A stretch of DNA of 64,000 nt from Candidatus Hydrogenedens sp. (GTDB taxonomy: Bacteria > Hydrogenedentota > Hydrogenedentia > Hydrogenedentales > Hydrogenedentaceae), in assembly GCA_049968235.1 (NCBI GenBank), contig JBMFRC010000004.1, forward strand, positions 190,013-254,012, given 5' to 3'. Below the pieces are notes generated by a model. That model saw nothing but the letters and a program-made list of their open reading frames with translations. It searched no databases and was not told the origin of the DNA. This document shows positions 25,428-50,936 of the stretch, one piece after another. Position 1 is the stretch's first letter, and every line of letters begins with the position of its first letter. The position numbers and the translations under genes are program-made.

Positions 25428-26109
25428 TCAATACCTCGTTTAAAAAATTTTGTATTAACATTGTACCACTGATATAACTCTTTTCGGGATGAAATTGAGT
25501 TCCATAAATATTCTTGTTTTGATATAAGGAAATAAATGGAATTCCATATTCCGTTATTCCCAGTTTTCCATTAATTTCCTTAAATGGAACAAAATAAGAA
25601 TGAGCAAAATAAAAATTAGGGGTTTCTATCATTCCGGATAACAATGATAATTCTTCTTTATAAACCTTTACATCGTTCCAACCGATATGTGGTACGCGAA
25701 TAGGGTCTTTAACTACATCTCGTATATGACAAACTCTTGCAGGTATCCATCCTAATCCCTTTGATTTTCCTTCCTCACTGAATTCTGTCATAATTTGAAA
25801 GCCTAAACAAATACCCAAGACGGGCTTTTTTAATTCTAATACATAATGATTTAATCTTCTGGTCAAGCCTATCTTTGTAAGGAAATCCATAGCACTTCCG
25901 CAAGCACCAACTCCAGGTAAGACAATTGCATCGAATTTATCCAACTCAATTTCATTACTAACAACTTCAATAGCAACTCCGGTTTTAGCAAAACAACGAT
26001 ATACTGAATGTATATTTCCTGCGGAGTAATCAATAATTCCAATTTTTATATTTTTATCTTGAAATATTTTCATTCCCACGGAAACTATCCTTGTTTTGTG
26101 CCACCACAA
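25414..26109 (-). CDS. Glutamine amidotransferase subunit paralog (HisH-like; WbuY/HisH2-type).
   Basis: Class I GATase: GVGACGSAM catalytic Cys region, and His/Glu in ...GTQFHPEKS. Confidence 0.85.
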   Translation of the reverse strand: MWWHKTRIVSVGMKIFQDKNIKIGIIDYSAGNIHSVYRCFAKTGVAIEVVSNEIELDKFDAIVLPGVGACGSAMDFLTKIGLTRRLNHYVLELKKPVLGICLGFQIMTEFSEEGKSKGLGWIPARVCHIRDVVKDPIRVPHIGWNDVKVYKEELSLLSGMIETPNFYFAHSYFVPFKEINGKLGITEYGIPFISLYQNKNIYGTQFHPEKSYISGTMLIQNFLNEVLNAKS

Positions 26110-27799
26110 AATTATTCAAAAACAGGTAATCCAGTCCTGACTCTATAAATGTCTGTAAGGCTTCTTCTGGAGTCCGAACAATGGGTGATTCATGCATATT
26201 GAAACTTGTATTCAGTATTACACTGGTTCCTGTTAATTCCTTATAATTTTTTAATATTTTATAAAAAGTCGGATTATTTTCTTTTTTTACAAGTTGGGCT
26301 CGCGTTGTTCCATCTATATGTACAACGGCACCATGTTGTTCTTTCATCTTTTGTGTACTTCGAAAACAGCATGTCATAAATTCACCTGCATGCCTTGCTT
26401 TTTCATATCCTATCAAAAACTGTTCCGCGTCCTCATATAAAAGAGCCGGAGCAAAAGGCATAAAATCACTTCGTTTTAACATAATGTTTAACTTTCCTGT
26501 TATATCCCGCATTGTAGAATCACATAAGATAGAACGATTACCTAAAGCACGTGGTCCCCATTCCATTTTATCATAAAATCGTGCAATAATTTTTTTATGA
26601 TAAAGACTTTCTGCTATAAATTGAAATATTTTTGTATCATCAAATTCCTGAAATGGAAGATTATATTTAAGTATTGCTGATTTAATTTCTTCGTTACTAA
26701 AACAATCTCCCCAAAATGCGTGCGGGAGGGGCTGGGGATTGAAATGGAATTGCGAACATATAGCCCCCAGGCTCAGTCCCCCATCTCCCATGTTTGGATA
26801 TACAAATAATTCTTCGACTTCTGGTAATTCATGTATTTTTTGATTTAGCAACACATTAGCAAATACTCCTCCTGCAACGGCTACCTTATTAAGTCCTGTT
26901 TTCTTTAGCCAATATTGAATTAAAGAACCAATTGTCTGTTCTAAGATATTTTGTGACCATGCACATAAATCCTCTCTTGAATATTTTTGTAATAATTGCA
27001 AAAGCCAGTCTCTTAATTTTTTACCATGAGGACCTTTGTATAAGAGAAGATTTTCATTCCATGAAAATGGGTTTTCATCTTTAATTTTGGATGCATCTCC
27101 ATGGGCAGAAAGTCCCGTAAGTTTTCCTTCATCTCTACAAGGAACAAAGCCTAATACCTCTGTTAAATTTTCAAAAAATAGGCCAAAAGAACTTTTAGCA
27201 GAGGATTTCCATAACCTTGTTATAATATTTCCATGTCCTTGAGAAACAGTTAAGGATAGTCCATCCCCCATTCCATCTGCAGTAACAATAAGTGCATTAT
27301 CATACCCCGAACAGAAATAACTTCCCCATGCATGGGCTTCGTGATGCTCAATAAAATAAATAGGGATATGAGGAGGAAGAAAGGGTAATCGCTTATGAAT
27401 TATTTTTTTCAAAATGACAGATAATTTTTTTTTCATTCCTTCGGATGGATTCATATAACTAATAGGATTATAAGAAACAGCCCATTCTGTAATATTACTC
27501 CAATATGTTTTACTTTTTTGATTTTTTTCTCGCCTTGAAAGAAATGCTTTTTTTTGTAAATTTGGGAATAAGCGAAAAAATGGGAATGGGGTTACAAATC
27601 CAGAGACACATACTCCTTCTATATCTTTCCAGGTTAAACCTGTTTGTTTTAAGGCATTTTCTAACGATAGGTATGGAAAGCCTCCCTCATTTTTTCTTTG
27701 TGTGTATCGTTCCTCGTTGGACATAAATAAAATTTTATCATCATCACAAAGAGTAACACCCGCGTCAAAAAAATCTTCACTAATTCCCAATATAATCAT
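26054..27799 (-). CDS. Carbamoyltransferase (NodU/CmcH/TobZ family O-carbamoyltransferase).
   Basis: N-terminal ILGISEDFFDAGVTLCDDDKILFMSNEERYTQRKNEGGFPY. Metal-binding IEHHEAHAWGSY. YrdC/Kae1-like architecture across 581 aa. Confidence 0.85.
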   Translation of the reverse strand: MIILGISEDFFDAGVTLCDDDKILFMSNEERYTQRKNEGGFPYLSLENALKQTGLTWKDIEGVCVSGFVTPFPFFRLFPNLQKKAFLSRREKNQKSKTYWSNITEWAVSYNPISYMNPSEGMKKKLSVILKKIIHKRLPFLPPHIPIYFIEHHEAHAWGSYFCSGYDNALIVTADGMGDGLSLTVSQGHGNIITRLWKSSAKSSFGLFFENLTEVLGFVPCRDEGKLTGLSAHGDASKIKDENPFSWNENLLLYKGPHGKKLRDWLLQLLQKYSREDLCAWSQNILEQTIGSLIQYWLKKTGLNKVAVAGGVFANVLLNQKIHELPEVEELFVYPNMGDGGLSLGAICSQFHFNPQPLPHAFWGDCFSNEEIKSAILKYNLPFQEFDDTKIFQFIAESLYHKKIIARFYDKMEWGPRALGNRSILCDSTMRDITGKLNIMLKRSDFMPFAPALLYEDAEQFLIGYEKARHAGEFMTCCFRSTQKMKEQHGAVVHIDGTTRAQLVKKENNPTFYKILKNYKELTGTSVILNTSFNMHESPIVRTPEEALQTFIESGLDYLFLNNFVVAQNKDSFRGNENISR

Positions 27800-30978: not shown

Positions 30979-33900
30979 TTAATCGGAAAGACCGATTCGT
31001 TTAATTCTTTGCTTTATATCGTCATTTTGAGGATTGAGGCTTATAACTTCTGAAAATACTTTTTTTGCATTATTTTTATCGTTTATTTTGAGGTATGTTT
31101 CCCCTAATTCTATTAACACTTCTGTAAGTGTTTCTAGTGGGACATCTTTTACTTTTAGTTTTTGAACTGCTTCTTGAAAAAGTTGTATTGCCTGTTGATA
31201 ATCACCTATCTCTTTTTTAAATTCAGCATAAGTTGCCCAGCCTTCACCATCACCGGGGTATATATCCAACGCAGTTTTATAAGCCTTCTCTGCCTCCTCG
31301 TATCTTTTCTGCTTTCTATACAAATTTCCTAAATTCCTCCATGCAAGAGGAAATTTGTATTCTAAATTTATCGCTTCCTTTAAATGTTCTTCTGCTAAAT
31401 CAAACATACCCACCTGAAAAGCATAAAATCCTAAGGCATTGTGCAGGTTATGGTCATGAGGCTGTTTTTCTAATGCTTTTTCAAAATAAGGAATTACTTT
31501 TTCCAATTCCCCTTTTACATAAAAGGCATCAGCAATATTATATAGAGCGTTTATTAGGTCGGGTTTTATGGATAATGATTTTTGATAAAGTTCTATTGCT
31601 TTGTCAATATCCCCCGACACAAAAGCATGATACCCTAAATTATTATATGCCAGCGGATTTTTATCGTCTATTTTCAGAGCTTTGTTATACATTTCTTCCG
31701 CTTCTTTTGTTTTCCCTAATCGGTCGTATAAAACTCCTAGGTCATAAGGGACATAAGAATTATTTGGGCTATTTATCATCGCCTTCCGGTATAAGTCTAT
31801 TGCTTGCTCTGTATTCCCCTTCTTTTCTGCCAACTGTGCTAGGTTATAGTATGCCAATTCATCATCAAGTCTTATTTTTAAGGCTTCATAAAATTTACTT
31901 TCCGCTTCTTCCCACTTATTTAACTTGACTAATAAACTCCCCCAGTTGTTCAATACTAAAGTAAAATCAGGAACAATTTCTAATGCCTTTTTAAAGTGCT
32001 CTATGGCTTCTTCAGGTTTATCGTCTTGTATTAAGATTGCTAATTCTCGATGTGCTCGTGCATCCTTCGCATTCATTTCTATTGCTTTTTCAAAATATGC
32101 TATCGCTTCTTCTTTTTTTCCCATCCTTGACAATACCTGTCCTGTCATATAATATACATTCTGAGAGGAGGGGTCAATATTTAATGCTAACTTTAATTTT
32201 TCTAATGACTTTTCATACTCTCCTTTATTAGCATAAATAGCACCCATTTTGGCTATAACATAAGAAAACTGAGGATAGGCTTCTAACGCTTTTTCATAAC
32301 AGGTAATCGCTTGTTCATAGTCTTTCCTCATTTCCATAATCTCTCCCAACTCATTCCATGCCCGAGCATCCCTAACATTTAGTTCTATTGCTTTTCGAAA
32401 ATAAACCTCCGCTTCATCCATTTTTTTCTGTTTCTTTAAAGCACATCCTAAAAGATAAATACTGTCTTGATATTCCGGATTTAGTTGAATTGCCTTTTTA
32501 AAATTATTCACAGCCTCTTGTAAGTTATCTTTGGCAAAAAGAATCCTTCCCAATCGCTCATAGGCATAGGCAAAATCGGGTTTAGCAGATACTGCTCGTC
32601 GGTAATATTCTTCTGCTGTATCCCATTCGCCATCATCCGCATGAATATTCCCCAATTCACAGAGTGCTCTTGCATCCTCTGGATTTAAATCTATCGCTTT
32701 TAACAAAGTATCTCTCGCTTCTTCAATTCGACCTATATTCCTCAATTCTCGACCTATAAGAAAATATACATCTTGATATGAAGGGTCTGTCTCCAACGCC
32801 TTTTTGTAAAAAGTCAGAGCATCTTCAGACCGTCCTTGTGATGAGAGTATTCTGCCATATTTATCCAGGACATAAGTAAAATCGGGTATAATTTGCAGAG
32901 CCTTTTCATAATGTATAAGTGCTTCCTTCCAATTTCCCTGGTGTTCAAGAATTTCTCCTATCTCGTTGTGGGCACGGGCATCATTCGGATTTAATTCAAG
33001 CGACTTTATAAAATATTTCTCTGCCTTCACTTCATCTTTTAATGCAAGATAAGTTTTTCCAAGATAATAAAACATATCTTGATAATCGGGGGCTAATCGG
33101 ATGCCTTTCTCGAACTGTTCTTTTGCCTCGTGAAAATAACCCGATTTAAATAAGTCCTTGCCTAACCGATGATGCATATAGGGTAAACTTTTAGGCATGT
33201 AAAGAAGTGTCTGTGCTTCTTCCAGAGCCTTTTGAATTTCTCCTCTTCTTAAATACGAATCGGCTCGTTGATAATGCCACCTTGCCAAATCTGGTTCAAA
33301 GGGAACCCATCGGATAGAAATAAGAATAAAGCATACAAGGAGTAGTGACAACCAACGCGTTAAAGATAAAGTATCTTTATTTTTTATACATACCCACAAA
33401 AAATAAATAAAGTTTGCACCTATTAAAAAGAACAAAGGGAGAACAGGAACGCGTGCTCTCCCATTCACAAAAAACATCAAGAAACTGCCTAAATAAGTGA
33501 TAATAAATAAATAAATTAACAATAACAATTCGTTAGAATATGAACTATTCGATAGAAAAAGAAATTTTGAAATATTGTCTTTGCTTAACCCAGATTTTAT
33601 GTTTAAAAAAATAAGAATTGTGCCTGCAATAAAAAGCCCGCCTGCCCATGGAAAAGTGGGGAGATATTTCAGAGGAGGGTAATGTTTTATTTCGTAATAC
33701 ACAACTTTATTACAGGTAATTTCGATAGGACACCACAGTAAAATTGCTTTTTTAATAATCTGTATAATTGTTTTTTCAGGATGCGTTTTAATATATTCCA
33801 ATGCTTTCTTTGTAAATATCATTGAAGCATCTGCATGTTTCAAGTTTTTTATCCCCAATTCTTTACCCAATCCTTTTACCACATTCACATAATCACGGGC

Positions 33901-34749
33901 AGTCCAGTTTCCAGTACCTTCTAATTTTTGTAAATATTGATTCCATGGAGTTGTGCCGTCTGCTTCCGGATTATTACCTATAAAAAGATTTTCCCCAAAG
34001 TATGTAGAAATAAGCACCCACTCACCTGATGCAATATAGTTACGGAGTGTAATAGGTATGATAGGGATAAAAGTAAAGATAAAAAGCACAACCCATGATG
34101 GAATAAAAGAAAAATATTTTTTTTCTTTGAATGTAATCCATACCATCCATAAGGCTATAAAAGGTCCAAAGGACAAAATATTCGGTCTCATAGTTGCATA
34201 AGTACCAATGGACAAGCCCAGAGGAATGCACCAGTACCATTTTTTATGGATACTCCAACGATATAGGACATAAAAGATAAAAACAACCAAAAAAACGAAT
34301 AAAGCGGGGTCGTTTACTTCTCCTTCCCAATATATAAAGACACTATAGGTAGAAAGTAAAAAACTGAAAATTAATCCTACAATTTCATTAAATATTGCTT
34401 TCCCTAAATAAAATGAGAGCAAAACTGTCAGGACACCTGCTATGGCATTAAAAATACGGGGGGTCAGGTAACTATCTGAAATAAAACGATAAAGAAAACT
34501 TAGAAAATATCCATGACCTGGTGGACGAAAAAAAGGTGTTGTGCGCATTTCGGGGTCGGTTACACCTTCAGGAACACTCCAATCGCCTGTTACTATTGCA
34601 CGAGCAAAGTAATCTTGAACCTCCGGGTCCTGTTGTAGTGCTGAATAATCGGGAGCATGTTTATATACTTCATAAAGATACCAAATTCTCAGAAACACCG
34701 CTATTAGAATGATTAGAAATAAAACAAACCTAACTTTATTTTCCTTCAC
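30979..34749 (-). CDS. Giant (1256 aa) GT-C fold membrane glycosyltransferase (ArnT/PMT_2-like, subfamily A) fused to about 20 TPR repeats.
   Basis: VQDYFARAIVTGDWSVPEG...FFRPPGHGYFLS. Clear paralog of 4997. The C-terminal roughly 800 aa is almost entirely TPR motifs. Confidence 0.75.
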   Translation of the reverse strand: MKENKVRFVLFLIILIAVFLRIWYLYEVYKHAPDYSALQQDPEVQDYFARAIVTGDWSVPEGVTDPEMRTTPFFRPPGHGYFLSFLYRFISDSYLTPRIFNAIAGVLTVLLSFYLGKAIFNEIVGLIFSFLLSTYSVFIYWEGEVNDPALFVFLVVFIFYVLYRWSIHKKWYWCIPLGLSIGTYATMRPNILSFGPFIALWMVWITFKEKKYFSFIPSWVVLFIFTFIPIIPITLRNYIASGEWVLISTYFGENLFIGNNPEADGTTPWNQYLQKLEGTGNWTARDYVNVVKGLGKELGIKNLKHADASMIFTKKALEYIKTHPEKTIIQIIKKAILLWCPIEITCNKVVYYEIKHYPPLKYLPTFPWAGGLFIAGTILIFLNIKSGLSKDNISKFLFLSNSSYSNELLLLIYLFIITYLGSFLMFFVNGRARVPVLPLFFLIGANFIYFLWVCIKNKDTLSLTRWLSLLLVCFILISIRWVPFEPDLARWHYQRADSYLRRGEIQKALEEAQTLLYMPKSLPYMHHRLGKDLFKSGYFHEAKEQFEKGIRLAPDYQDMFYYLGKTYLALKDEVKAEKYFIKSLELNPNDARAHNEIGEILEHQGNWKEALIHYEKALQIIPDFTYVLDKYGRILSSQGRSEDALTFYKKALETDPSYQDVYFLIGRELRNIGRIEEARDTLLKAIDLNPEDARALCELGNIHADDGEWDTAEEYYRRAVSAKPDFAYAYERLGRILFAKDNLQEAVNNFKKAIQLNPEYQDSIYLLGCALKKQKKMDEAEVYFRKAIELNVRDARAWNELGEIMEMRKDYEQAITCYEKALEAYPQFSYVIAKMGAIYANKGEYEKSLEKLKLALNIDPSSQNVYYMTGQVLSRMGKKEEAIAYFEKAIEMNAKDARAHRELAILIQDDKPEEAIEHFKKALEIVPDFTLVLNNWGSLLVKLNKWEEAESKFYEALKIRLDDELAYYNLAQLAEKKGNTEQAIDLYRKAMINSPNNSYVPYDLGVLYDRLGKTKEAEEMYNKALKIDDKNPLAYNNLGYHAFVSGDIDKAIELYQKSLSIKPDLINALYNIADAFYVKGELEKVIPYFEKALEKQPHDHNLHNALGFYAFQVGMFDLAEEHLKEAINLEYKFPLAWRNLGNLYRKQKRYEEAEKAYKTALDIYPGDGEGWATYAEFKKEIGDYQQAIQLFQEAVQKLKVKDVPLETLTEVLIELGETYLKINDKNNAKKVFSEVISLNPQNDDIKQRIKRIGLSD

Positions 34750-34818: not shown

Positions 34819-34971
34819 TTACAAAGCGTATATAAACGGCGAAATAACTCCAGCATTTCCTGCAAAGATAAATAAGGCAGCCAGTAATAGTAGGGTTATG
34901 ATAATAGGTGCGAGCCAATATTTCTTTCGAACCTTTAGAAAATCCCAAAATTCCTTTAATAATTCTTTCAT
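34819..34971 (-). CDS. Small (50 aa) single-TM membrane protein resembling the SxtK/DUF5989 family. Not in the ORF track.
   Basis: My own translation: MKELLKEFWDFLKVRKKYWLAPIIITLLLLAALFIFAGNAGVISPFIYAL. GGAGG lies 8 nt upstream of this ATG. A longer MEALF- start is possible at 34986. The FLKxRKKxWLxPII...LLL pattern matches my recollection of DUF5989. Confidence 0.45.
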   Translation of the reverse strand: MKELLKEFWDFLKVRKKYWLAPIIITLLLLAALFIFAGNAGVISPFIYAL

Positions 34972-35058
34972 GAACAATGCCTCCATAGTTTTACTTTATA
35001 ATTTATTATACAAAATTGTCTATTTTAATGGGAAAAGAGTAAAGCCAATCTATATAAG

Positions 35059-35673
35059 TTATTTTTCGACGCTTTTCAGTTTTATCAAAAAAGGCATAAT
35101 AAGTTCCTGAATTCTTATCCCTATTTCTTCAACTCTTCTTGAATATAAATGATATGCAACTAACGAAGGAATTGCAATAATTAATCCGGCCACTGTTGTT
35201 ATCAGTGCTTTGGATATACCCTGTGCCAACATCTGTGCATTTCCGAGACCACCTATCGTAATCACATTAAATATATCAACCATCCCTAAAACTGTCCCAA
35301 GTAAACCCAGCAAGGGACTGATTACAGATATTATTTGTAGCACAGTAAGACCGCGTTCTAAGTAGGACAACTGAGTCCTACCTAATGTATTAATATGTTC
35401 GACAAGAACATCTTTAGGTTCATTACGAAGATTAATTACCTCACTAACAAGAATACCAAGAGGTGAAACTTTCCGCTGAGATAGAGAACGGATAGTTTCA
35501 AGTTCTTTTAACATGTTCGGGTAAGAAAGTAATTGAGTAAGTTCATCAGGTATATTTTTTTTCATTCTCAATGCAAAAAAACGTTCAAATATTATAGCCA
35601 ATGCTATAACAGAGCATATCGCAAGAGGATACATAACCCAACCACCTTGATATAGCATATTCATCCAACTCAT
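35059..35673 (-). CDS. MotA/TolQ/ExbB family proton-channel protein.
   Basis: Three TM segments with the typical ExbB/TolQ C-terminal half (...LGLLGTVLGMVDIF...AQGISKALITTVAGL). Confidence 0.8.
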   Translation of the reverse strand: MSWMNMLYQGGWVMYPLAICSVIALAIIFERFFALRMKKNIPDELTQLLSYPNMLKELETIRSLSQRKVSPLGILVSEVINLRNEPKDVLVEHINTLGRTQLSYLERGLTVLQIISVISPLLGLLGTVLGMVDIFNVITIGGLGNAQMLAQGISKALITTVAGLIIAIPSLVAYHLYSRRVEEIGIRIQELIMPFLIKLKSVEK

Positions 35674-35691
35674 ATGAATCTCCTTTAATTA

Positions 35692-36657
35692 CTACAAAAA
35701 ACTAAATGTCCACCGAATTTGTAAATTTCTATTCTTGTATATATCAGGAACCTGAAAAGGAAACGGCGAAAAAGGTGCTGATTTCTGCAATGCTTGTTTA
35801 CAAATACCTGCAAACAATAGGTCTTCAGGTTCACCGATAATATCTATTTTAACAATTTTACCTTCTGAACTTATCTCGCAATCAATCACGACTTCTGTTG
35901 GTTTTGTCCCTGAATATCGAGTTAATAAATAATGTAACCAGTATTTTTCAACTTTCCGTTGAATTTCCTTTAAATAGGGTGCCAACTGGTCTTGAATCGC
36001 TTCAAAACCAAGTATCCCCTCTTTTTTTACCTGGTTATAAATCTTTCCCTGTGGGTTCTGGAATGCCTTCCCTGAATATTCAGGTTCTACAATCTCTTCT
36101 GGACTTTGCTCTTTTATTAATTTTTCATCATTCGTATTATCTTCTTTTTTAGGGAGTATTGTTCCCCCTTTTTCTCTATGAAGTATTGCTCCCATAGGAA
36201 GATTATTTTTCACTGCTTCTTTATGTTGTATCTTAGTTGTTTTTTTTGTTTGAGGAATAATATTAGCCACCTGCATTTTTTCCGTTTCAGAACCTAATGT
36301 TTCAATTTTTGGATTTTCAACTAATGGTGGTCCCGGAATATCTCCCTCACTTTTAACAGGAGCAGAAGAAATAGAATTAGCCTCTGCAATATTTTCAGTT
36401 TTTGAGGGCACTTCATCTGTTGGTTCTATAACTTCTACCAGTTTTTTTATTGTATTTTGCTGTTCCTGCTTTACAAATTCGACTCTTATAGACTTCTCTT
36501 TTGAAATATACGGGGTTGGTTGGGAATATAAAGATGTCTTTATTAGAATTCCAAGAATACAACAATGGATTATTAGGGAAAACAATATATAAACAGATAT
36601 TGTTTTCGTATAAGATATTTGTTTCCTATTTGGAGCCGAAAAATAAATGCCATTCAT
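35692..36657 (-). CDS. TonB-like energy transducer: N-terminal TM anchor, Pro/Glu/Lys-rich spacer, and a C-terminal TonB-type domain.
   Basis: TM anchor ISVYILFSLIIHCCILGILI. Low-complexity P/E/K-rich middle. C-terminal roughly 90 aa with alternating hydrophobic pattern (VVIDCEISSEGKIVKIDIIG...). Confidence 0.6.
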   Translation of the reverse strand: MNGIYFSAPNRKQISYTKTISVYILFSLIIHCCILGILIKTSLYSQPTPYISKEKSIRVEFVKQEQQNTIKKLVEVIEPTDEVPSKTENIAEANSISSAPVKSEGDIPGPPLVENPKIETLGSETEKMQVANIIPQTKKTTKIQHKEAVKNNLPMGAILHREKGGTILPKKEDNTNDEKLIKEQSPEEIVEPEYSGKAFQNPQGKIYNQVKKEGILGFEAIQDQLAPYLKEIQRKVEKYWLHYLLTRYSGTKPTEVVIDCEISSEGKIVKIDIIGEPEDLLFAGICKQALQKSAPFSPFPFQVPDIYKNRNLQIRWTFSFL

Positions 36658-36678
36658 TAGAAATTTCTATTTTCTGGT

Positions 36679-37722
36679 TTACTTGCCCGATTTAAGAAAA
36701 ACAATTTTCTCGTTTTCAATATAATACGAATATGATATATCCAACCACTGAAAAGTCAACAAATCCAAGGCTAATTTAAGTTTCATTTTATTTAAGTAAC
36801 ACGGATTCACAGGCAAGTTTTCGGTTCCGGGCATCATCTCAATGGTAAGCCCTGTTTGATTTGCAAGCACGGGAGCCACTTTAGATAATGGTAACGCTCC
36901 CTCATAAAAAGGAAGGGTTACTTTCTTATCTAATGGAACATATCTGGGTAAGGAAATAATTACTTCTTTATCTAATGAAGTTTCTTTTGTCCCCACATTA
37001 AAAATTTTACAATCAACAAGTTGGGTTTTTCGCATATTTAATATAGTATAGAAAAATATAAAATCGTCGGTAGCACACCATTGAATATTCTGAGGAACAA
37101 TACGGGCACTTTTCAATATCATTTCCAATGCTACACTTAAAGACTTCTGTGAGATAACAATCTCTCCCACAGGTAATTCTGCTATGCTATTATCTGCAAC
37201 AATATTACAACCATAAGTAAAATTAAGACTATTTAGAACATTAAATAATTTTGTTCCTGCTCCAAATCCTGCAGTTACTGTTATATGTTCATATTTTGAG
37301 GGTAATTTATCAGATAGGGATAATCGTGTTAGATTTTCATATATAGATTGTTCCGTCGGGTATAAAAAATAATAACCATTTATTTCCTGTAAGGACATGT
37401 TTGTCGTTGATGATATTTGTTGAATTAAATTTCCTATTTCTTTTTCAGGCTTATCAATTTGAACCCATCGTGTTTCAGCACCATTAACAACTGAAATGGA
37501 TAAAGGATAGTCCCCTCCTAATTTTCTAATCACGACATTTAATAAAGCGGACTCCTTAATAAGGTCAAATACATTCTCATTTTGTATAATCTCTTCTTGA
37601 AAATTATTTTGTTCTTCCTTTGGAGTAGATTTGCAGGATATACCAGCAATAAGGGAAAGAAATGATACAATGATAAAACACAATAATTTTTTTTGCATAG
37701 GATTTCTTATAAAAGTCTGCAT
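36679..37722 (-). CDS. Hypothetical exported protein or lipoprotein; first gene of the TonB/ExbB operon.
   Basis: Signal peptide ending ...LIAGISCKS. No recognisable domain. Confidence 0.5.
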   Translation of the reverse strand: MQTFIRNPMQKKLLCFIIVSFLSLIAGISCKSTPKEEQNNFQEEIIQNENVFDLIKESALLNVVIRKLGGDYPLSISVVNGAETRWVQIDKPEKEIGNLIQQISSTTNMSLQEINGYYFLYPTEQSIYENLTRLSLSDKLPSKYEHITVTAGFGAGTKLFNVLNSLNFTYGCNIVADNSIAELPVGEIVISQKSLSVALEMILKSARIVPQNIQWCATDDFIFFYTILNMRKTQLVDCKIFNVGTKETSLDKEVIISLPRYVPLDKKVTLPFYEGALPLSKVAPVLANQTGLTIEMMPGTENLPVNPCYLNKMKLKLALDLLTFQWLDISYSYYIENEKIVFLKSGK

Positions 37723-37812: not shown

Positions 37813-38415
37813 ATGTTTCAGTTATCTGTTTATATTCTATTCTGGTGTTTGATTAATGGAGCACAAACTTTTTATGGTGAAGTTCCTGAAAATATTCCCA
37901 CTTTTTTGATAAAAATTCAACGAGAACAAAGCGAGTTTTATGGAGGTATTATTGTTCAGGGACAATGGGTAGATAATGCTTCCCTGCCTGAATTGAAAAG
38001 CAAATCGGTTGAAATTGTTGTAGATACACCCTGGGAAACGCCCCAAATTCATCGTCGTGAATTAGGTCACCGAATTGAACTTTCGTATGAAGCACCTGTA
38101 TTACGTAAAAAAAGACTGGAAGACGGCTGGAAAAAAGCAGGTTATGTACTTTTAGATAATCCACAGGGGAAAAAAGTTATTAAAGAGACTACTTATAAAC
38201 AAGCATTACAGGCAATAGAAATGGCTCAATCTATCTATCAGCAAAATCAGCCACCTGAATTATTGTATAGTCCAAGTGGGGTTGCATTTGATTCTAATAC
38301 CAATAAAAATACTTTTATGAAACAGTGGATTTTCCATATTTTGATAGTAGTTTCAGGGATATTGTGTTTATCTTTCATTATTTGGAAGTTTTTGTTAACC
38401 TCTCATTCCTCGTAA
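37813..38415 (+). CDS. Hypothetical protein with an N-terminal signal peptide and a C-terminal TM anchor.
   Basis: Hydrophobic N-terminus and C-terminus (WIFHILIVVSGILCLSFIIW). Confidence 0.45.
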   Translation: MFQLSVYILFWCLINGAQTFYGEVPENIPTFLIKIQREQSEFYGGIIVQGQWVDNASLPELKSKSVEIVVDTPWETPQIHRRELGHRIELSYEAPVLRKKRLEDGWKKAGYVLLDNPQGKKVIKETTYKQALQAIEMAQSIYQQNQPPELLYSPSGVAFDSNTNKNTFMKQWIFHILIVVSGILCLSFIIWKFLLTSHSS

Positions 38416-38435: not shown

Positions 38436-40076
38436 TCAAATTAACCCTTTAATCTCATAAGCCACAATGAATTGTTCTTTATTCTTTACCTTAAAGGTAC
38501 CAATGGGAGAACCTCTAACCCTTCCTTTTAATTCTGCCCATGCTTCATTTCCCACAACAACTGTTCCCGGATTTGCCATATCACACAAATGTTTTGCTGA
38601 ATTTACCCTATCCCCAACAACGGTATATTCCATTCGTTTCGGAGAACCAATAAATCCTGCAACTACTTCACCCGTTTCAATACCAATACCCAATTGGAAG
38701 GCAGGTTTCCCCTCAGAAATTCTTAAAACATTCAGTTCCTCATTTCTTTTTAATATATCTAATGAAGCACAAACAGCAGCGTATGTATCATCCCCTGTAG
38801 AGATAGGTGCACCAAATATAGCCATAATCTCATCACCTATATATTTATCTAATGTCCCATTCCATGCAAAAATAATTTCTGTCATTGCGGTAAAATGTTC
38901 ATTTAATAAAAAGAGTAATTCTTGTGGAGAAAGTCGTTCCGCCATTTGTGAAGAACCTCGAATGTCGCAAAACATTGTAGTAACTCTTTTCTTTTCTCCC
39001 CCCAATTGAATTGCAGAACCTTTACTTATAATTTGTTCTACAACAATATCAGGAAGAAATCGTCGGAAGTTCTCTCTCTTGCGTTCTTCCTCAATCATCT
39101 TTGTATTTAATTGAGCATTTTCTATAGCAAGGGCAATCTGATTTCCCATCGAACAGAATAGTTCCAAATCATCCTCATCAAAAAAAGCCTTTTTCCTAAT
39201 TGAATCAATATAAATAGAACCTAAAATTCTATCTTCAATTCGTAAAGGGACACACATAGCACTTATTATTTTCCGTGCAATAACACTCTCCCTATTTCCA
39301 AACTCCATATCCGCTGAACGGTCCATCATAAGTACAGGTTCCCCCTCAATTGCAGATTTCCCGGCGATGCCCATACTCGGTGAACTTGCTTCTAACCCGG
39401 AATCCATTGCCCGAGATACTTTGGTAACTAATGCATTTTTAGTTTCATCCTTCAAAAGAATAAAACCTCGCTCAGCACCCAGAACTTCTATCACAAGGTC
39501 TAATACCTGAGCAAGTTTTGAATCTAAATGATGTGCAGAACCCATAATCTGAGTTGCTTTGTATAACGCATCTAACCGTCGATATGCACGACTTAGTTTC
39601 TTTATATCAATTGACGGAGTAATTACTTCCTTTGCTTTTTGAAGGGTCGGTTCTGTTTGGTCTCGAGATATTTTAAATAGAGTATTTTTAACTTCTTCTA
39701 TTTCTTCTCGAACATGTTCCATTCGGTTTATATATTTACTTTCATGGCTATCCTTTTTCTGAGAATCTTTCAAATCTTTTTTAGGAATATCGTCTCTAAA
39801 AACAATTCTGCATTTACTGCCCAGCCATATTTCATCCAGATGTTTAAGTTTCTGTTCTATAATTCTTTGTCGATTGACATAGGTCCCATTCAAACTTTTC
39901 AGGTCTGTAATAATATAGGCTCCATCTTTCATATAAATCTTTGCATGATGTCGAGATATTTCTTCTGTGGACAAAACCACATCACAATCATTCGACCTAC
40001 CTAAAATTATCTCTTTCTCTTCAATAGGGACCGTCTGTGTTGAAATTCCTTGTTGTTCAATAATCAAGAAAGGCAC
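38436..40076 (-). CDS. FHA domain - GAF domain - class III adenylate/guanylate cyclase (CHD) three-domain signalling protein.
   Basis: FHA: GRSNDCDVVL...SRHHAKIY...DLKSLNGTYVN. Central GAF-like region. C-terminal cyclase core VTTMFCDIRGSS...FGAP...GDxVN. Confidence 0.85.
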   Translation of the reverse strand: MPFLIIEQQGISTQTVPIEEKEIILGRSNDCDVVLSTEEISRHHAKIYMKDGAYIITDLKSLNGTYVNRQRIIEQKLKHLDEIWLGSKCRIVFRDDIPKKDLKDSQKKDSHESKYINRMEHVREEIEEVKNTLFKISRDQTEPTLQKAKEVITPSIDIKKLSRAYRRLDALYKATQIMGSAHHLDSKLAQVLDLVIEVLGAERGFILLKDETKNALVTKVSRAMDSGLEASSPSMGIAGKSAIEGEPVLMMDRSADMEFGNRESVIARKIISAMCVPLRIEDRILGSIYIDSIRKKAFFDEDDLELFCSMGNQIALAIENAQLNTKMIEEERKRENFRRFLPDIVVEQIISKGSAIQLGGEKKRVTTMFCDIRGSSQMAERLSPQELLFLLNEHFTAMTEIIFAWNGTLDKYIGDEIMAIFGAPISTGDDTYAAVCASLDILKRNEELNVLRISEGKPAFQLGIGIETGEVVAGFIGSPKRMEYTVVGDRVNSAKHLCDMANPGTVVVGNEAWAELKGRVRGSPIGTFKVKNKEQFIVAYEIKGLI

Positions 40077-40153: not shown

Positions 40154-42697
40154 TTAAGGAATATAAGGTTCTATAGATATTTTATCTGAAGCAATTCCTT
40201 GAAGTTTCGCTGTAAACTCCCAGGCTGCACCTTGATTATATATAGCCATTAACAACACATTGTCTTTTTGTAATTTAATGTTAAATTGGTCCTGGTCAGG
40301 AGTCATGGTTCTTCCCTCTGCAAAAGAATGAACCCGTATTCCATTGAGCCATACTTTAACACCATCATTACTTCCCAATAACATCTTTGCTTCAACAGGT
40401 TCAGGTACTGTAATCTTGCACGCAACATAGGCAACGCATTCTACCTCACCCCCGGAATATTCAGCCAGGTCTGCATAAATCAAACCTTCTCCACGAACCT
40501 TTAATGGTAAGATACGCCAATCCTTAACAGAATTTATTTCTGTTTCGGGGGGGAAAGAAACTTCATCAAATAATCGCCTTGCTCCATAATCTTCCATTCG
40601 ATATGGACCACTTATACTCCATGAACAGATATATTCCCCTTTATTTTTCAATCCATTCAACAAATTTTCTAACTCCTTCGCCTGATTATCTTTCAGGTTA
40701 GGGAGCATTTCTTCTAAAATGGGTATTGTTCTTGAAGGATAAGAGAAACTGATATTCTTCGCCACAGTAAATCTTGCATTTGCCCAATCTGCTTTTACTG
40801 CATCGTTGATGTTCATTCCTTCTATGAAATCCAATACCTCTAACATAGTTAATTTTGCAAGACCACCCAAAATATTTTTTTGGAGTGAAGGATTATTTCC
40901 TGCCATTTTCCAGAGATTTATATAGTAATCATATTTTTGCTTATCTGTTAGATTTAATGTCCTTAATATATTTAAGGAACTTAAAATTCCGGCATTCTTA
41001 ATCTCTTCATTGGTCTCTTTTGAAATTTCACTTACTATCTTTTGCAAAGTATCTGCATCATCACATTGCCCTAAAGATTGTAAGATACTTACTTTTAAAT
41101 TAGGTTCACCTGACCATAAATCTTTAAGCATTGCACATGCTTCTGGGCTTTTAATATTGCCTAATAAGGTTATTAAAGATTTCTTTTGTAAATCATTTTT
41201 ACATTTCTTCCATTGCTCTGTTATAAGCATTATTTTACGACCTTCATCACCTGTTCTATCAATAATTAAAGAAATAGCAGGTATGTAAGCAGAACTATTT
41301 TCTGCATTCGCCATAAGTTTATCAAATAGAAACGGCAAATCCGATTCGTTTCCCAGAACTGCATAATAATTCAATGCTTCATCAAAAATATCTTTGTCAT
41401 CTTTGGATATTGCATCACGAATAACTTCTTTTGCTTCCATTGACCTGCGCTCTGTTAGTAGGTCAACGGCTAATCTTTTAACATCGGCATTCCCCTTCTG
41501 GATTTTTTCAATCAAGTATTTGTTTGCATCGGGATTGTCCAATTTTATTAATGCATCTTTGGCTATTTCTTTAATTTCACGAGAACCATTCATCGCAATA
41601 TTCATTAACGGTTTCATGGCACGATTATCTCCCATTCGGCCAAGACATTGAATTGCGGATATTTTTACTTCTCCATCTACATTTTCGGCAAGGTTTACAA
41701 CCTCTGAAATAGCACCTGTAATTTTGCGAGAAGCAATTACTTCTAATATTCCCAGTTGAAGCCTTGAATTTGCTGTTTTTAATGTATTTACACATTTTTC
41801 CATAAGTAATTTATCGGGGAAAGATTTATCTTTCAATAAATCAATACCGGTCGAAGAGAGGATTACATCTTCATTTCCAATACTTTGCCAAACTTCATTA
41901 AAAGCCTCCTTGCCTTTTAACTGGACTAATCCTCTCAGAGCATACCCTCTACTTACAGGCATTGTCTTATCATTGGCAAATATGGATGAATAAATTTGTA
42001 AAGCCATATCTTTTTCAGACAAATCTTCTGCTAATTGACCGGCAATTTTCAAGAGAGCAGACTGCACATTAGAATTTTCGAGCATAGATTTATTTTTAGC
42101 CCAGTTCCATAGTATATTCCCTGCTTCTTTTCCACCTATAGAACCAAGTGCAATTACCGCAGAATTTTGTATTTTTTGTGATGGGTTCTCCAGATATTGG
42201 GATAATACTTCAATAGATAGAGAATCTTTTCTTCTTCCCAGCGAGTTGATAAGAGCGATTTTATCATCTTCAGGGGTAGATTCTTGTTTCAATACCTGTA
42301 TAAGAGATTGTGTTGCTTCTTTGCCGGGGATTTGCTCTAATATTCGGCAACCGATATCAATCGTTTCCTTATCTTTTAATAATGGTTCAATTCCCGGAAC
42401 TGCGGATGGTGTAGCAATTACAACTAATTGGCGAGCAAGAAATCTCTTCCCATCAATAGAACATTTTGGTAAAATTGCTACAAGTTGTTTTGATAACTGC
42501 TCCTGTTTCGCAGGATTATTTTGAGTTGTTTTTACTGCCTCTAAAATAGGCTCTAATGGTTCACGGTTCATACCAAACTTATAGGTTTGCAAATAATTTA
42601 GGGCATCTTTAATGTTTGGAATCTCCTGAGCGGAGATAATGGATGTTAAGAATATCAATGTCAGGAATATGTTCATTAAAATGTAATTATTTTTCAT
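40154..42697 (-). CDS. Secreted HEAT/PBS-lyase-like repeat protein with a C-terminal roughly 170-aa domain of unknown function.
   Basis: Signal peptide. Repeated ...LG.IG...A...L... HEAT-like units through most of the length. The C-terminal segment (CSWSISGPYRMEDYG...) is not assignable. Confidence 0.65.
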   Translation of the reverse strand: MKNNYILMNIFLTLIFLTSIISAQEIPNIKDALNYLQTYKFGMNREPLEPILEAVKTTQNNPAKQEQLSKQLVAILPKCSIDGKRFLARQLVVIATPSAVPGIEPLLKDKETIDIGCRILEQIPGKEATQSLIQVLKQESTPEDDKIALINSLGRRKDSLSIEVLSQYLENPSQKIQNSAVIALGSIGGKEAGNILWNWAKNKSMLENSNVQSALLKIAGQLAEDLSEKDMALQIYSSIFANDKTMPVSRGYALRGLVQLKGKEAFNEVWQSIGNEDVILSSTGIDLLKDKSFPDKLLMEKCVNTLKTANSRLQLGILEVIASRKITGAISEVVNLAENVDGEVKISAIQCLGRMGDNRAMKPLMNIAMNGSREIKEIAKDALIKLDNPDANKYLIEKIQKGNADVKRLAVDLLTERRSMEAKEVIRDAISKDDKDIFDEALNYYAVLGNESDLPFLFDKLMANAENSSAYIPAISLIIDRTGDEGRKIMLITEQWKKCKNDLQKKSLITLLGNIKSPEACAMLKDLWSGEPNLKVSILQSLGQCDDADTLQKIVSEISKETNEEIKNAGILSSLNILRTLNLTDKQKYDYYINLWKMAGNNPSLQKNILGGLAKLTMLEVLDFIEGMNINDAVKADWANARFTVAKNISFSYPSRTIPILEEMLPNLKDNQAKELENLLNGLKNKGEYICSWSISGPYRMEDYGARRLFDEVSFPPETEINSVKDWRILPLKVRGEGLIYADLAEYSGGEVECVAYVACKITVPEPVEAKMLLGSNDGVKVWLNGIRVHSFAEGRTMTPDQDQFNIKLQKDNVLLMAIYNQGAAWEFTAKLQGIASDKISIEPYIP

Positions 42698-44211: not shown

Positions 44212-45762
44212 CTATTTTACTTCTAAAAGTGATTGGGCTGTAACGGTCTTTATTTGATACCATGCTCGGAACAAAGAGACTCGTGCAGAAGCAAGCCTTC
44301 CCTCTGCTTCAATTAAATCTTTCTGTGCCTGATTTAACCGCACCAAAGATGTCTGCCCTGCTTTATATTCCTGTTCCACCAAATCTCTATTTTTTCTGAC
44401 ATATTGGGCATTTTCTCTTTGTAGTTTTAACTGTTCCTGTGCAGATTTTAATTCCTGAAGGGTACTTTGGACATCTGTTATAACATCAATTCTCCCTGCA
44501 TAGTAATTTTGCTCCGCTTCCCGAAGTTTTGCCCTTGCTTCTGCGCGTAATGCGCGATTTTTACCACCCGTAAAGAGGTTATATGAGACATCTACACTTA
44601 CCGTAGTAGCAAAGTCATCGGAACGAAATTCACTATCTACAGTCCGTGTCGCTGAACGGGATAAAGAGACTCCTATTTGTGGGAATAAAGTAGAACGACT
44701 TTGCCCAACCTGTGCTTCGGTTTGTTGAACAATTAATGTCAACATCTTCAAATCAGGTCTGCTTTGTAAGGCAAGTGATAATAATTCGTCCACATTCGGA
44801 GTTTCCAAATCTTTATCGGTTTCATCTTTTAAAGGTGTTAACTTTACATTATCTGGAAGTACACCTGTATTCAAACCCATTACACCTGCTAAGGATATTC
44901 GTGCAATTTCACGATTTTGACGAGCATTTATAATTTGTGCTTCTGCGGACCTCAATAGAACTTCAAAATTTAGGACATCGCTTAAAGAACCTGCTCCTAA
45001 TTCTTGTTTTACTTTTGCTTCATAGAGTTGTCTTTCGTTAAATGCTTTATCTGCTTCTGCTATACGAAGATTCTCCTCTGCTAATTGCACAGCATAAAAA
45101 CTATTTGCTACTGCAGATAATAACATACGGATGGCTTCCTGTTGGGATTCTTCCGTTGCCTTTTCACCTAATTTTGCAAGAGCAACAGAATATTTACGGG
45201 CAAAACCATCAAATAAGGTATAGCGAATGATAAAATTTATTGCATAGTTATTTTGTGATTCCGGAATGCTATTACTTGCTTGATATGCAGAAATCCACGA
45301 GTTTAATACGGTCTCCCATGGGATTGAGGATAGAATATCTGAACCAGTTGTTCCTCCGGCACTTCTAAGAACAGATTGAGAGATTGTATTTGAACTCTGT
45401 TGCCAAACAGCATTCTGTGAATGACGGATAGCAGTATCTGACAACTCTGTGTGTGAAGCGGTATAATTGGCAATAATTTGTGGATAGTACTGAGATAATG
45501 CTTGTTTAACCTTCTGTCGGGCTTGCTCTATCCGTTCGGACACTGCCTTTAATGAGGGGTTCTGTTCTAATGCTATTTTTTGTGCTGTTTGCAGGTCTAA
45601 ATATTCAGGAAGTTCCTGTGTAATCGGGGGAGTATTTCCTGATTGTAATGGGAATGTATCTGTATTTGTATCTTGTGAACTACCTGAAAAACACACGAAT
45701 ATACATAAACTTCCAATCCATATACAGAATAATTTTTTAATATCGAAATTTGCGAATTCCAT
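44212..45762 (-). CDS. TolC-like outer membrane efflux protein (OMF), partner of the RND pump.
   Basis: Signal peptide. Two OEP repeat halves rich in Q/A/L coiled-coil segments. Confidence 0.8.
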   Translation of the reverse strand: MEFANFDIKKLFCIWIGSLCIFVCFSGSSQDTNTDTFPLQSGNTPPITQELPEYLDLQTAQKIALEQNPSLKAVSERIEQARQKVKQALSQYYPQIIANYTASHTELSDTAIRHSQNAVWQQSSNTISQSVLRSAGGTTGSDILSSIPWETVLNSWISAYQASNSIPESQNNYAINFIIRYTLFDGFARKYSVALAKLGEKATEESQQEAIRMLLSAVANSFYAVQLAEENLRIAEADKAFNERQLYEAKVKQELGAGSLSDVLNFEVLLRSAEAQIINARQNREIARISLAGVMGLNTGVLPDNVKLTPLKDETDKDLETPNVDELLSLALQSRPDLKMLTLIVQQTEAQVGQSRSTLFPQIGVSLSRSATRTVDSEFRSDDFATTVSVDVSYNLFTGGKNRALRAEARAKLREAEQNYYAGRIDVITDVQSTLQELKSAQEQLKLQRENAQYVRKNRDLVEQEYKAGQTSLVRLNQAQKDLIEAEGRLASARVSLFRAWYQIKTVTAQSLLEVK

Positions 45763-46354
45763 ATTGTTTTATTAACTCCTCTGTTTGTTGTAATTTTTCG
45801 GGGGGAACATTTTCAATACGATGACCTATTTTTCGTGCTGGGACCCCTGCCCATATTTCCAGAGGTCCTACTTTCGTATCCTCTACAAGGACACTACCCA
45901 CACCAATAATAGCACCATCTCCAATTTCTACCCCTGGATGTATATAACATCGGCTTCCTACAAGGACATCATCTCCGATAATAATCGGTTTGGCTATATG
46001 GGGTGTTAAAGCAAAATGCTCTTTTGTCCCCCAGAATACATGATTTGTATCTCGAATAACTGTAAATTCCGCAACAGCGGTATTACTTCCAATTTGTATC
46101 AATGCTGTAGATTCTAAAATTGTATAGTAACTCAATAGTGAATGGGTCCCCATTATTATTTTTCCTTCTTTATGAGTGCGAAGTATCACATAATCCCGAA
46201 ACCGGCAATAATCCCCGCACTCCACATGTCCCTCTATGGTAAAGTGTTTTCCTTGAATACGACATTTTTTTCCTTTCCTGGCAAATTTCAAGCCATGATA
46301 ATAACTTCGCCAGCGAACTAAAAAAGCCTCAAACATGTTATACAATTCCTCCAA
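45737..46354 (-). CDS. Hexapeptide-repeat (left-handed beta-helix) acetyltransferase (WbbJ/WcaF-like).
   Basis: IGDDVLVGSRCYIHPGVEIGDGAIIGVGSVLVED hexapeptide repeats. Sits between the RND and OMF genes and overlaps the OMF start by about 26 nt. Confidence 0.75.
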   Translation of the reverse strand: MEELYNMFEAFLVRWRSYYHGLKFARKGKKCRIQGKHFTIEGHVECGDYCRFRDYVILRTHKEGKIIMGTHSLLSYYTILESTALIQIGSNTAVAEFTVIRDTNHVFWGTKEHFALTPHIAKPIIIGDDVLVGSRCYIHPGVEIGDGAIIGVGSVLVEDTKVGPLEIWAGVPARKIGHRIENVPPEKLQQTEELIKQYGIRKFRY

Positions 46355-46363
46355 TATCTATTT

Positions 46364-49300
46364 TCATAAGGAACTATTTTCTAATTGCTGTTTTTGTTCT
46401 AACATTGAAAATACAGGCTCTACTTCTTCAGGTTTTGGAATTCTTCGATTTCTAATTGTATATGCTAATCTTCGAATATCATTTAATACACCAATAATAG
46501 CAGGTATAAATAGAAGTGTAACACTAGTCGCAAACACTAATCCTATAGCTAACGAGACTGCCATCGGTTTCAGGAACTGTGCTTGCATATCTCGTGTAAA
46601 AAGCAAACTTATAAGCCCTCCAAATGTAGTAACTGAAGTTAAGAAAATAGCACGAAATCTTCTCTTACCCGCCTGGAGAATAGAAGAAATAAAACTATTC
46701 CCTTCGCCAAGGTTTGCATTAAAGCAATCAACAAAAACAATAGCATCATTAACAACTACTCCGGAAAGGGCAACAATACCGAATAGACTCATAAGTGTAA
46801 CAGTTTGTCCGAACAATAAATGTCCAATCAATGCGCCTACAACTCCAAATGGAATGGTAAGCATAATTAATAGCGGTTGAGAATAAGAATGGAATATCGA
46901 GGAAATAATTAGGAAAATTAATAACAATGCAATAGGAAAACCCACTTTTAAGGAGCTAAGGGCATCACTACTATTTTGTTGAGGTCCTTCAAACGACCAT
47001 ATTAATCCCGGATATTTCCTTTGGAGCAATGGGAGGAAATTACTTGTTAAATCGCCAATAATTTCTGTTGAATTTGCTTTTGTTGTTTCTATATCTGCTG
47101 TTACGACAACTCTTCGCATCCCATCAACACGGGTTATTGAAGAAAATCCAGGAGTATAATCTACATCAGCAACAGCAAATAAAGGAACTTCATATCCTTG
47201 ATTGGTTCGTATGCGAACTTGATTTAATATAGAAAGATAACTTCGGTCCTCACGGGGATAACGAACCCGTATGCGAATATCATCTCTACCTCTTTGTATT
47301 CGGACAGCCTCTTCTCCGAAGAAGCCACCCGCTAATTGTCTTCCTAATGAATCCAGAGTTATCCCCAATGTTTGTGCCTCTGGTTTCAGATAAAATCTCG
47401 CTTCAATTTTTGCAGGTCGATAATCATCCTCAATTTGATAAACTCCATCATAAGTTTTAAGTTTCTCTTTTATCTCCTGGCTTGCACGAATCAGATCTTG
47501 AAGGTTTTCACTCCTTAACCACAACTCAATACCTGTTCCACGGGGACCTCCTCCACTTACATCATATTTCTGTTTTAATGTTCCGGGGATAGTCCCTGTT
47601 TCTTTTGCCCACATGGAAGATAATTTCTTGGCATGAATCCCTCTTCGTTCTGTGGGTAACAATTCTACACGGATTTCACCTACATTACTCCCCCCCTGAG
47701 CCGAAAAACCGCTACTGCTCTGACCCACAACACTGTAAACATTCTGAACTAAAGGTTCACCACTTATTGTTGTTGTTTTTTCTACTAATCGTTTCAAGGC
47801 GGATTCCATCCTCTTCACCGCATCTTTTGTAACATGAAACGGTGTCCCGGAGGGAAACTCAACCTGTGCCATTAAATAGTCCCCATCAGCCTCAGTAAAA
47901 ACTTCAAATTTAATAATTTGCCCCCGAACAAGTCCCATTATTGTTAATAATATAGCAATAGAGGCAGTTAACGAAATGTAACGATGCCTTAACATGGCAT
48001 TTAAAAACGGAAGATATATTTTGTCAACAAAAGCATCAAGGGAATCGCTGAAGAACCATCTTAATTTTTTCAGAGGATGTTTCCGATTATCCGAATTCGA
48101 AATGGTATGAGATAAATCAGGCAAGTCATTAAGGTGAGCGGGGAGTAAGAAGAGAGATTCAAATAGTGATACACTCAACGCTGATATAACAACAATTGGT
48201 AAAATACGGATAAACTTACCCATAATTCCACTTACAAACATTAATGGGATAAATGCGGCTATTGTTGTTGTTACAGCCCCTATCACGGGCAGCCCCACTT
48301 CTTCTACACCCGTTAACGCCGCTTTCATGGGTGGCAATCCTCGCTGGCGATGATAGTATATTGCCTCTCCTATAACAATCGCATCATCAACCAACATACC
48401 TAATACCATGATTAGTCCAAACAATGACATCATATTTATAGTATCCCCATGAATATACATAATACTGATAGCCCCAGCAAAGGAAATAGGAATACCTAAA
48501 GTAACGAAAAAGGACAAACGAGCATCCATTAATAACAACAACATCAAAATAACGATAACTAACCCTTGAACACCATTCATTTCAAGCAAATTTAACCGGG
48601 CTCGAATGAGCCGGGCACTATCGTTCCACACGGAGATTTTTACACCCGGAGGCAATTGTTTTTGTTTCGCCTCTACATATTTATGGACCGCATCGGATAT
48701 AGCTATATCATCTTCCTCCTGTGTTTTGAAACATGAAATCAAAACTGATTTTTCTCCATTAAAATCTGCCTCTAAGGGGTCTTCATTAAAATCATCTCGT
48801 ATTTCCGCTACTTGGTCCAGAGTAATCACTTCACCTGTAGGTTTGGCTAATACTACTATCTTAGCCAATTCATCCGCATAATATTTTCTACCTATTGTTC
48901 GAATACGTATTTCGGCTCCTTTAGAACGAATAAGTCCCCCAGAAATGTTTAAGTTTCCGGAACGAATTGCTGATGCCACCTGTGAAAATGTTAACCCCAA
49001 CTTTTGAAGTTTTTCTTCGGAAATTTCAATTCCTATTTCATACTGTTTCGCACCAAAAATAAAAACCTGTGATAGTTCCGGAAGTGCCTGTAATTCATCT
49101 TTTATCTGTTCTGCCCACTCTTTTAAGATTTTATCGGGTAAATTTCCGGATAATGCAACCTGAATAACTTCACGGCGAATAGTTACTTCATTTGTTATTG
49201 GTTTCTCTGCGTCTTTTGGAAATGTAGAAATAGAATCAATGGCATTACGAACCTTATCATATACCTTACTTAAATCATAACTATCCATTACCTCAATATT

Positions 49301-50922: not shown

Positions 50923-50936
50923 AAAACTTCCTCACT

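Follow-up and report, generated by a model that had tools for sequence, protein, structure and literature searches.

A DUF5989/SxtK-family gene between a Ton/Tol-like module and a glycan gene island in Candidatus Hydrogenedens

The present analysis concerns a short membrane-protein gene in Candidatus Hydrogenedens sp., located on the minus strand of a 64-kb stretch of contig JBMFRC010000004.1 (the whole of which is termed the window; GC content 34%). The gene stands between a Ton/Tol-like module and a glycosyltransferase gene. The module begins with a lipoprotein (LP; 36679-37722, 347 aa), followed by a TonB/TolA-like protein (35692-36657, 321 aa) and an ExbB/TolQ-like protein with three transmembrane (TM) segments (35059-35673, 204 aa), and the small open reading frame (ORF) comes next, all four on the minus strand as the original prediction described. 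The gaps within the module are short (21 bp between the LP and TonB-like genes, 18 bp between the TonB-like and ExbB-like genes). Two starts are available to the small ORF: the first ATG would give 55 aa (34819-34986), and the second (34971) gives a 50-aa product beginning MKELL (34819-34971). The latter is favored by a GGAGG Shine-Dalgarno (SD) sequence 8 nt before it (34984-34980), the same signal that had been ascribed to the gene at the outset. The distance to the ExbB-like gene is therefore 87 bp from the 50-aa start or 72 bp from the 55-aa start; the gap of 72 bp originally quoted is right for the longer form, and no further ORF, let alone one of the size of ExbD or TolR, fits into it. 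On the other side, the next gene follows after 69 bp and encodes a 1256-aa PMT_2 (GT-C) membrane glycosyltransferase with TPR repeats (30979-34749, minus strand); its GTG start is preceded by an AAGGA that is kept in the closer relatives.

Judged by its sequence, the small ORF is a genuine gene of the DUF5989/SxtK family, the assignment that had originally been suggested. The peptide matches the PF19451 profile over nearly its full length (residues 3-50 align with positions 2-48 of the 49-position profile; E = 6.1e-20, 71.4 bits, cutoff 27 bits), and like other members it is a single-pass protein of about 50 aa with the motifs W-x-F-L-K-V-R-K-K-x-W-L-A-P and P-F-I-Y. Conservation was assessed in 121 DUF5989 sequences, in which W9, F11, K16, W19, P22, P45, F46 and Y48 show no variation and R15 reaches 99%. 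The window peptide has all of these residues as well as L20, each of them 99-100% conserved across the family. The frequency of Asp or Glu at the TM positions (19-38) is 0.00, and about 12 residues follow the helix. Since the basic K-V-R-K-K stretch precedes the helix, an N-in topology is implied. The peptide was also found to be conserved in related genomes, where it is 92-100% identical, compared with 61-88% for the accompanying ExbB-like and 41-75% for the TonB-like proteins; because it is more conserved than these upstream proteins, it is considered a real gene. The list of DUF5989 homologues spans archaeal metagenome-assembled genomes (MAGs; Hodarchaeales, Nanoarchaeia) and Patescibacteria, a wide range for a 50-aa peptide of about 60% identity.

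The genomic company of the family was surveyed by applying local HMMs to 80 metagenomic loci and counting neighbors within 1.5 kb. A carbamoyltransferase occurs beside DUF5989 in 65 of the 80 loci (81%) and SxtJ in 56 (70%), and most of the remaining loci sit on truncated contigs. ExbB was found near DUF5989 at a single locus, at a distance of 5 kb, and the TonB-like family at none of the 80. The usual carbamoyltransferase neighborhood (the SxtI-J-K context), cited in the original prediction, is thus borne out, and it agrees with the literature on saxitoxin synthesis, in which SxtJ and SxtK are listed as "unknown" and proposed to act with the carbamoyltransferase SxtI (PMC2679770). Individual loci sampled for comparison from contigs of relatives and metagenomes (numbered with the prefix L) show the same company: within polysaccharide clusters, the order is SxtJ-DUF5989-carbamoyltransferase or carbamoyltransferase-SxtJ-DUF5989 in L013/14, L017/18, L019 and L020. 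A literature search with incomplete coverage returned nothing relevant on DUF5989 itself.

The direct coupling of DUF5989 to a gene for a GT-C (PMT_2) plus TPR protein, which distinguishes the window from the usual SxtJ/SxtK arrangement, recurs in another Hydrogenedentes genome (L010-12). In that genome, a 77%-identical DUF5989 lies directly upstream of a PMT_2 plus TPR gene, the N-terminal 500 aa of which are 53% identical to the window protein, and the gene upstream of DUF5989 codes for a mechanosensitive channel, with no TonB or ExbB. Among the sampled loci, a PMT_2-type gene directly after DUF5989 was otherwise seen only in L020 (carbamoyltransferase, SxtJ, DUF5989, PMT_2) and, as a weak PMT_2 protein, in L017. 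In the window protein, the PMT_2 match (E = 2.8e-10) was obtained with the N-terminal 500 aa; the TPR array comprises more than 20 repeats. DUF5989 is the first gene of an envelope-glycan island of about 32 kb (2800-34750). The island has no fewer than four PMT_2 genes (2800-4983, 4997-7642, 18209-20458 and 30979-34749), of which three carry TPR arrays, and a weak fifth (12847-15060). The three full-length PMT_2/TPR proteins of the island share 27-37% pairwise identity, and there is no second DUF5989 for the other paralogues; the window contains one copy. The island also codes for two B12-binding radical-SAM enzymes (8806-10269 and 20762-22300), WbuX, HisH-like and HisF-like proteins (23440-26109), a GT2 glycosyltransferase, a further radical-SAM protein, a flippase-like LPG_synthase_TM protein and a DegT aminotransferase. 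Its NodU/CmcH-type carbamoyltransferase (Carbam_trans_N plus Carbam_trans_C; 26054-27799, minus strand) is the sole one in the window and lies 7.0 kb downstream of the peptide gene, as had been remarked.

The 87-bp spacer upstream of DUF5989 (34972-35058, minus strand) carries a promoter-like element in addition to the SD. The promoter scan returned TTCCCA (35034-35029) and TATAAT (35010-35005), 18 bp apart and matching the consensus at 10 of 12 positions. Six relatives keep the TATAAT and the GGAG of the SD unchanged, although the bases around them diverge, and an internal promoter is inferred from the sequence. Neither a terminator nor a structured RNA was detected in the spacer, the predicted fold being no better than those of shuffled sequences (z = +0.73). 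The recurrence of the DUF5989-PMT_2/TPR pair without TonB or ExbB, together with the invariant TATAAT and SD, suggests that the peptide leads the glycan island. The most supported assignment is therefore to the glycan-island unit and not to the TonB-ExbB unit. The alternative role offered for the peptide, that of an unrelated hitch-hiker, is accordingly the one favored; the statement that either role would be new was overstated as far as the peptide is concerned, which is encoded at one end of an island of glycan genes that includes a carbamoyltransferase.

The other role envisaged for the peptide was that of a substitute for ExbD. Genes for B subunits normally lie directly downstream of those for A subunits (PMC12505986), so that the conserved lack of an adjacent ExbD gene is unusual, and DUF5989 occupies precisely that place. 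It is, moreover, single-pass, probably N-in and extremely conserved. The hallmarks of ExbD, TolR and MotB are a protonatable Asp in the TM helix and a periplasmic domain of at least about 90 aa. The former is found in none of the 121 DUF5989 sequences, which have neither Asp nor Glu in the helix, and the peptide has no periplasmic domain; with both hallmarks absent, the idea that DUF5989 replaces ExbD is rejected. The family is tied to carbamoyltransferase and SxtJ, extends to archaea and Patescibacteria, and occurs with the GT-C gene in the absence of ExbB, while the TonB-like/ExbB-like pair is found in seven other contexts without the peptide. A central subunit of an ExbB-like pentamer formed by DUF5989 is, on these grounds, scarcely credible, and the view that the peptide functionally completes a TonB-ExbB operon is not supported.

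The absence of an ExbD gene at the locus was itself upheld by the ORF list and by tblastn, HMM and phmmer searches. No ExbD or TolR was detected by tblastn in the 64-kb window with the E. coli queries. A frame-shifted or hidden ExbD, including one with a mis-called frame just outside the expected position, was sought in six-frame ORFs from the window and from 25 other loci by tblastn, a small HMM and phmmer, and none was found, although this is a weak test because ExbD is poorly conserved in sequence (PMC12505986). No unassigned ORF of ExbD size lies beside the ExbB-like gene. The same holds for all 17 loci that carry the TonB-like/ExbB-like pair: none has an adjacent ExbD or TolR gene, and no PF02472 appears in the precomputed annotations. 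The lack of ExbD is thus conserved across the whole TonB-like/ExbB-like family, a feature that the original prediction had missed.

The 17 loci represent eight independent contexts, namely the window clade (L001-L008), L009, L021, L022-23, L024-25, L026 (a 7.9-Mb chromosome), L107-109 and L110. In all eight, a gene of the same TonB-like family lies ahead of the ExbB-like gene. The downstream neighbor of the latter is DUF5989 in the window clade only, and otherwise a convergent or unrelated gene; an ExbD-like ORF never takes that place, and the seven contexts other than the window clade lack both ExbD and DUF5989. The synteny of the TonB-like, ExbB-like and small-ORF genes expected in relatives is consequently present in L001-L008, where the order LP, TonB-like, ExbB-like, DUF5989 and PMT_2/TPR is retained down to 61% identity of ExbB, and absent elsewhere. 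The ExbB-like subfamily (about 205 aa, 41-88% identity) and the TonB-like family (83 proteins) both consist, as far as their members are named, of Hydrogenedentes proteins, and the window ExbB-like sequence is identical to one in the Candidatus Hydrogenedens MAG GCA_049969095.1. A literature search, again of incomplete coverage, gave nothing relevant on ExbD-less ExbB systems or on Ton systems of Hydrogenedentes.

Some of the loci show features of their own. In one lineage, L022-L025 (at about 4270-6000), a protein of 542-557 aa of the sulfatase/phosphodiesterase family is encoded between the TonB-like and ExbB-like genes; upstream lie genes for Helicase_C_3 and, as a weak match, PilZ, a combination that is also present upstream in L026. 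In L008 (3405-4019) the ExbB-like gene appears split into ORFs of 55 and 133 aa, although tblastn covers it end to end, and represents either a pseudogene or an artefact of assembly or masking. In L021, from another Hydrogenedentes genome, a TolB gene and a gene for a 243-aa TolA-like (TonB_2) protein (7249-9315, minus strand) are convergent to the pair; upstream of them no tolQ or tolR is visible, only 820 bp devoid of ORFs, followed by a transposase-like fragment. Because no tolQ or tolR is seen there, the ExbB-like protein of L021 might serve as the TolQ of that organism. A truncated 89-aa gene at the end of the same locus was considered as a TolR and rejected, as its translation is not membrane-like.

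Like the A subunits of Ton and Tol systems, the ExbB-like protein matches MotA_ExbB (PF01618; E = 2.1e-26, 92.6 bits, cutoff 22.9) and retains the pore threonines of TM2 and TM3: T127 and T160, equivalent to T148 and T181 of E. coli ExbB, are conserved in all 119 members of the subfamily examined. Unlike them, it scores far below the cutoffs of the NCBIfam equivalogs, TolQ (TIGR02796; 87.1 bits, cutoff 221) being nearer than ExbB (TIGR02797; 61.7 bits, cutoff 206.2). A second deviation concerns K155 in TM3, the equivalent of Glu176 of ExbB and Glu173 of TolQ: of the 119 sequences, 103 have Lys at this position, 10 have Gln and only 6 have Glu. The order of the genes, TonB-like and then ExbB-like, the lack of an adjacent ExbD or TolR, and the lack of a TonB-dependent receptor or TolB/Pal in the cluster further set the pair apart from known Ton and Tol systems.

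The relationship of the TonB-like protein to TonB and TolA rests on fold comparison, since the sequence-level tests failed. Its match to TonB_2 (E = 7.7e-4, 20 bits) is under the cutoff of 22 bits, a profile search of PDB sequences did not retrieve TonB, and hhalign against E. coli TonB gave a probability of 1.9%. The AlphaFold2 model predicts a TM helix (residues 16-43), a disordered linker of about 170 residues (44-216) that is not conspicuously Pro-rich, and a C-terminal domain (CTD; 217-321) with pLDDT of about 96. In Foldseek against the PDB, the top 20 matches of this domain, and 25 of the top 27, are CTDs of TolA-III, TonB, HasB or FusB (probability up to 1.0; TM-score 0.72 to 2x9a_B). 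The helix contains S27-x3-H31, with H31 nearly invariant (at least 90% in 59 sequences). The S-x3-H pattern is the ordinary signature by which TonB and TolA bind to the outside of the pentamer. The helix, the long disordered linker and the CTD fold all resemble those of Ton/Tol partners. A post-TM motif is also conserved, as are two invariant cysteines in the CTD (C260 and C286), the latter being a further difference from Ton and Tol.

The LP family (157 clusters at 50% identity) shows no Pfam family at E of 1 or below, save one noise hit, and no match to STN (PF07660). Position 30, after the signal peptide, is a nearly invariant Cys. The structure model (pLDDT 91.8, pTM 0.84) gives a fold match to STN/N0 domains, according to which the LP would be a string of such domains. 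In known systems, STN/N0 domains are periplasmic docking modules tied to TonB-dependent signalling or to secretins. The closest counterparts are the C-terminal signalling domains of FecR and PupR, the signalling domains of FecA, PupA and FpvA, and the N0 domains of GspD, PilQ and InvG; in contrast to these, the predicted domains of the LP are repeated in a stand-alone lipoprotein, without an anti-sigma, barrel or secretin part. The window clade, L009, L026 and L107 each have a gene of the LP family beside the pair. In L107 (6689-9670, minus strand) this gene is convergent to the pair and codes for a 993-aa protein that includes the LP/STN-repeat domain (LP family HMM, E = 1e-100), so that the family also extends to larger proteins.

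We consider it probable (about 0.72) that two unrelated functional units abut at this locus, a Ton/Tol-like module and a DUF5989-led glycan unit, and that DUF5989 is no substitute for ExbD. The first unit would comprise the LP, TonB/TolA-like and ExbB/TolQ-like proteins, a set met to date only in genomes labelled Hydrogenedentota; by analogy with known Ton/Tol systems, the channel may energize the periplasm-spanning protein, for which the LP is a likely periplasmic partner. The B subunit would most probably be supplied by an exbD/tolR gene elsewhere in the genome, as the ExbB-like protein keeps both of the pore threonines that surround the ExbD Asp. The second unit would consist of DUF5989, with its own -10 box and SD, and the PMT_2 plus TPR gene, at the upstream edge of the island. 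DUF5989 is most likely a small membrane adaptor for the modification of lipid-linked glycans, by carbamoylation or glycosyl transfer, and in the window would act together with the GT-C/TPR enzyme. Several observations weigh against this reading. The promoter call is a consensus match in an AT-rich genome, in which the scan gives 20 such sites against 15.7 expected. In the absence of a terminator, DUF5989 may be transcribed by read-through, or co-transcribed, from the upstream genes; this, along with the adjacency of ExbB and DUF5989 down to 61% ExbB identity, leaves room for co-transcription and a functional link specific to the clade. The peptide also stands outside the usual trio, as no SxtJ was found in the window when searched for, and the carbamoyltransferase, although within the same island, is 7 kb away and not adjacent, as it usually is elsewhere. 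Finally, the Lys in place of Glu176 possibly signifies a different mechanism, and it is by inference only that we have exbD/tolR supplied from elsewhere in this organism.

The last two points bear on the proposal that the pair is a true energizer or anchor free of a B subunit, perhaps by way of the TonB-like TM His and a Lys ring that replaces Glu176. It draws on the eight independent contexts in which ExbD is missing from its normal place, on Lys or Gln at the Glu176 position in 113 of the 119 sequences, and on the near-invariant H31 with the conserved motif behind the helix. To our knowledge, all characterized motors of the MotA/ExbB/TolQ type need a B subunit that is encoded next door. The full conservation of both pore threonines suggests that there is still room for a canonical B helix, S-x3-H is readily explained as the usual signature for binding outside the pentamer, and the ExbD searches behind the proposal covered the window and sampled loci; we therefore regard it as unlikely. 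Its wider form, a trans-envelope device specific to Hydrogenedentota in which an ExbB/TolQ-type channel with a Lys ring instead of Glu, a TolA/TonB-type spanner and an LP of STN/N0 repeats work without a B subunit, is quite unlikely. In the Hydrogenedens clade, alternatively, the Ton/Tol-like module and the DUF5989-GT-C/TPR genes could cooperate, for example in energizing the export or modification of surface glycans, with the peptide as a clade-specific accessory of the operon. The gene order of L001-L008, the short gaps without a terminator and the sulfatase-family envelope enzyme inserted between the TonB-like and ExbB genes in L022-25 are in keeping with such cooperation. Each unit, however, is found independently of the other in the same phylum, a -10 box is conserved ahead of DUF5989, and adjacency in a single clade is explicable by descent alone, which makes this cooperation very unlikely.

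Other genes accompany the Ton/Tol-like module of the first unit. A 200-aa membrane protein without a Pfam match, hyp200 (37813-38415, plus strand), is divergent from the module. The window clade, L009 and L026 all have it together with the LP and the pair, and in L107 the co-occurrence is weak. Hyp200 was examined as a divergent ExbD and discarded (hhalign probability against ExbD 0.1%; hydrophobic segments without Asp). Next to it, a class III nucleotide cyclase with FHA and GAF domains, as identified by Pfam (38436-40076, minus strand), is also found near the pair in the window clade and in the distant relatives L009, L024 and L026. Its cyclase domain gives PADLOC hits to PycC (E = 3e-17), which probably reflect the shared cyclase fold only; anti-phage defence was rejected as a role for the module, since the module has no PADLOC match and it is the cyclase domain alone that resembles PycC. 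An 847-aa HEAT-repeat protein (40154-42697, minus strand) carries at its C terminus a conserved domain of about 150 aa, which is likewise encoded beside the cyclase in L009. Further along, an ordinary RND efflux operon (44212-51410, minus strand) codes for an OEP, a hexapeptide transferase, an AcrB-type pump and an HlyD-type adaptor, preceded by MarR.

The peptide belongs to a known family in a variant context, and the result concerning it mainly averts a mis-annotation: DUF5989 is no part of a Ton system. Its context (carbamoyltransferase, SxtJ and, in Hydrogenedentes, direct coupling to a GT-C gene) points to a membrane role in the modification of lipid-linked glycans, and bears on the role of SxtJ and SxtK in the carbamoylation of saxitoxin. 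Of greater importance than the peptide is the module of TonB-like, ExbB-like and putative STN-type LP genes without ExbD, of which no description was found in a literature of incomplete coverage. A family of pairs that lacks linkage to ExbD and has an altered pore residue implies either that B subunits are freely shared or that the energizer differs in mechanism. If a device without a B subunit were indeed formed, the MotA/ExbB/TolQ motor superfamily would gain its first 5:0 member, and the device may be linked to the neighboring FHA-GAF cyclase as a route of signalling from the cell surface.

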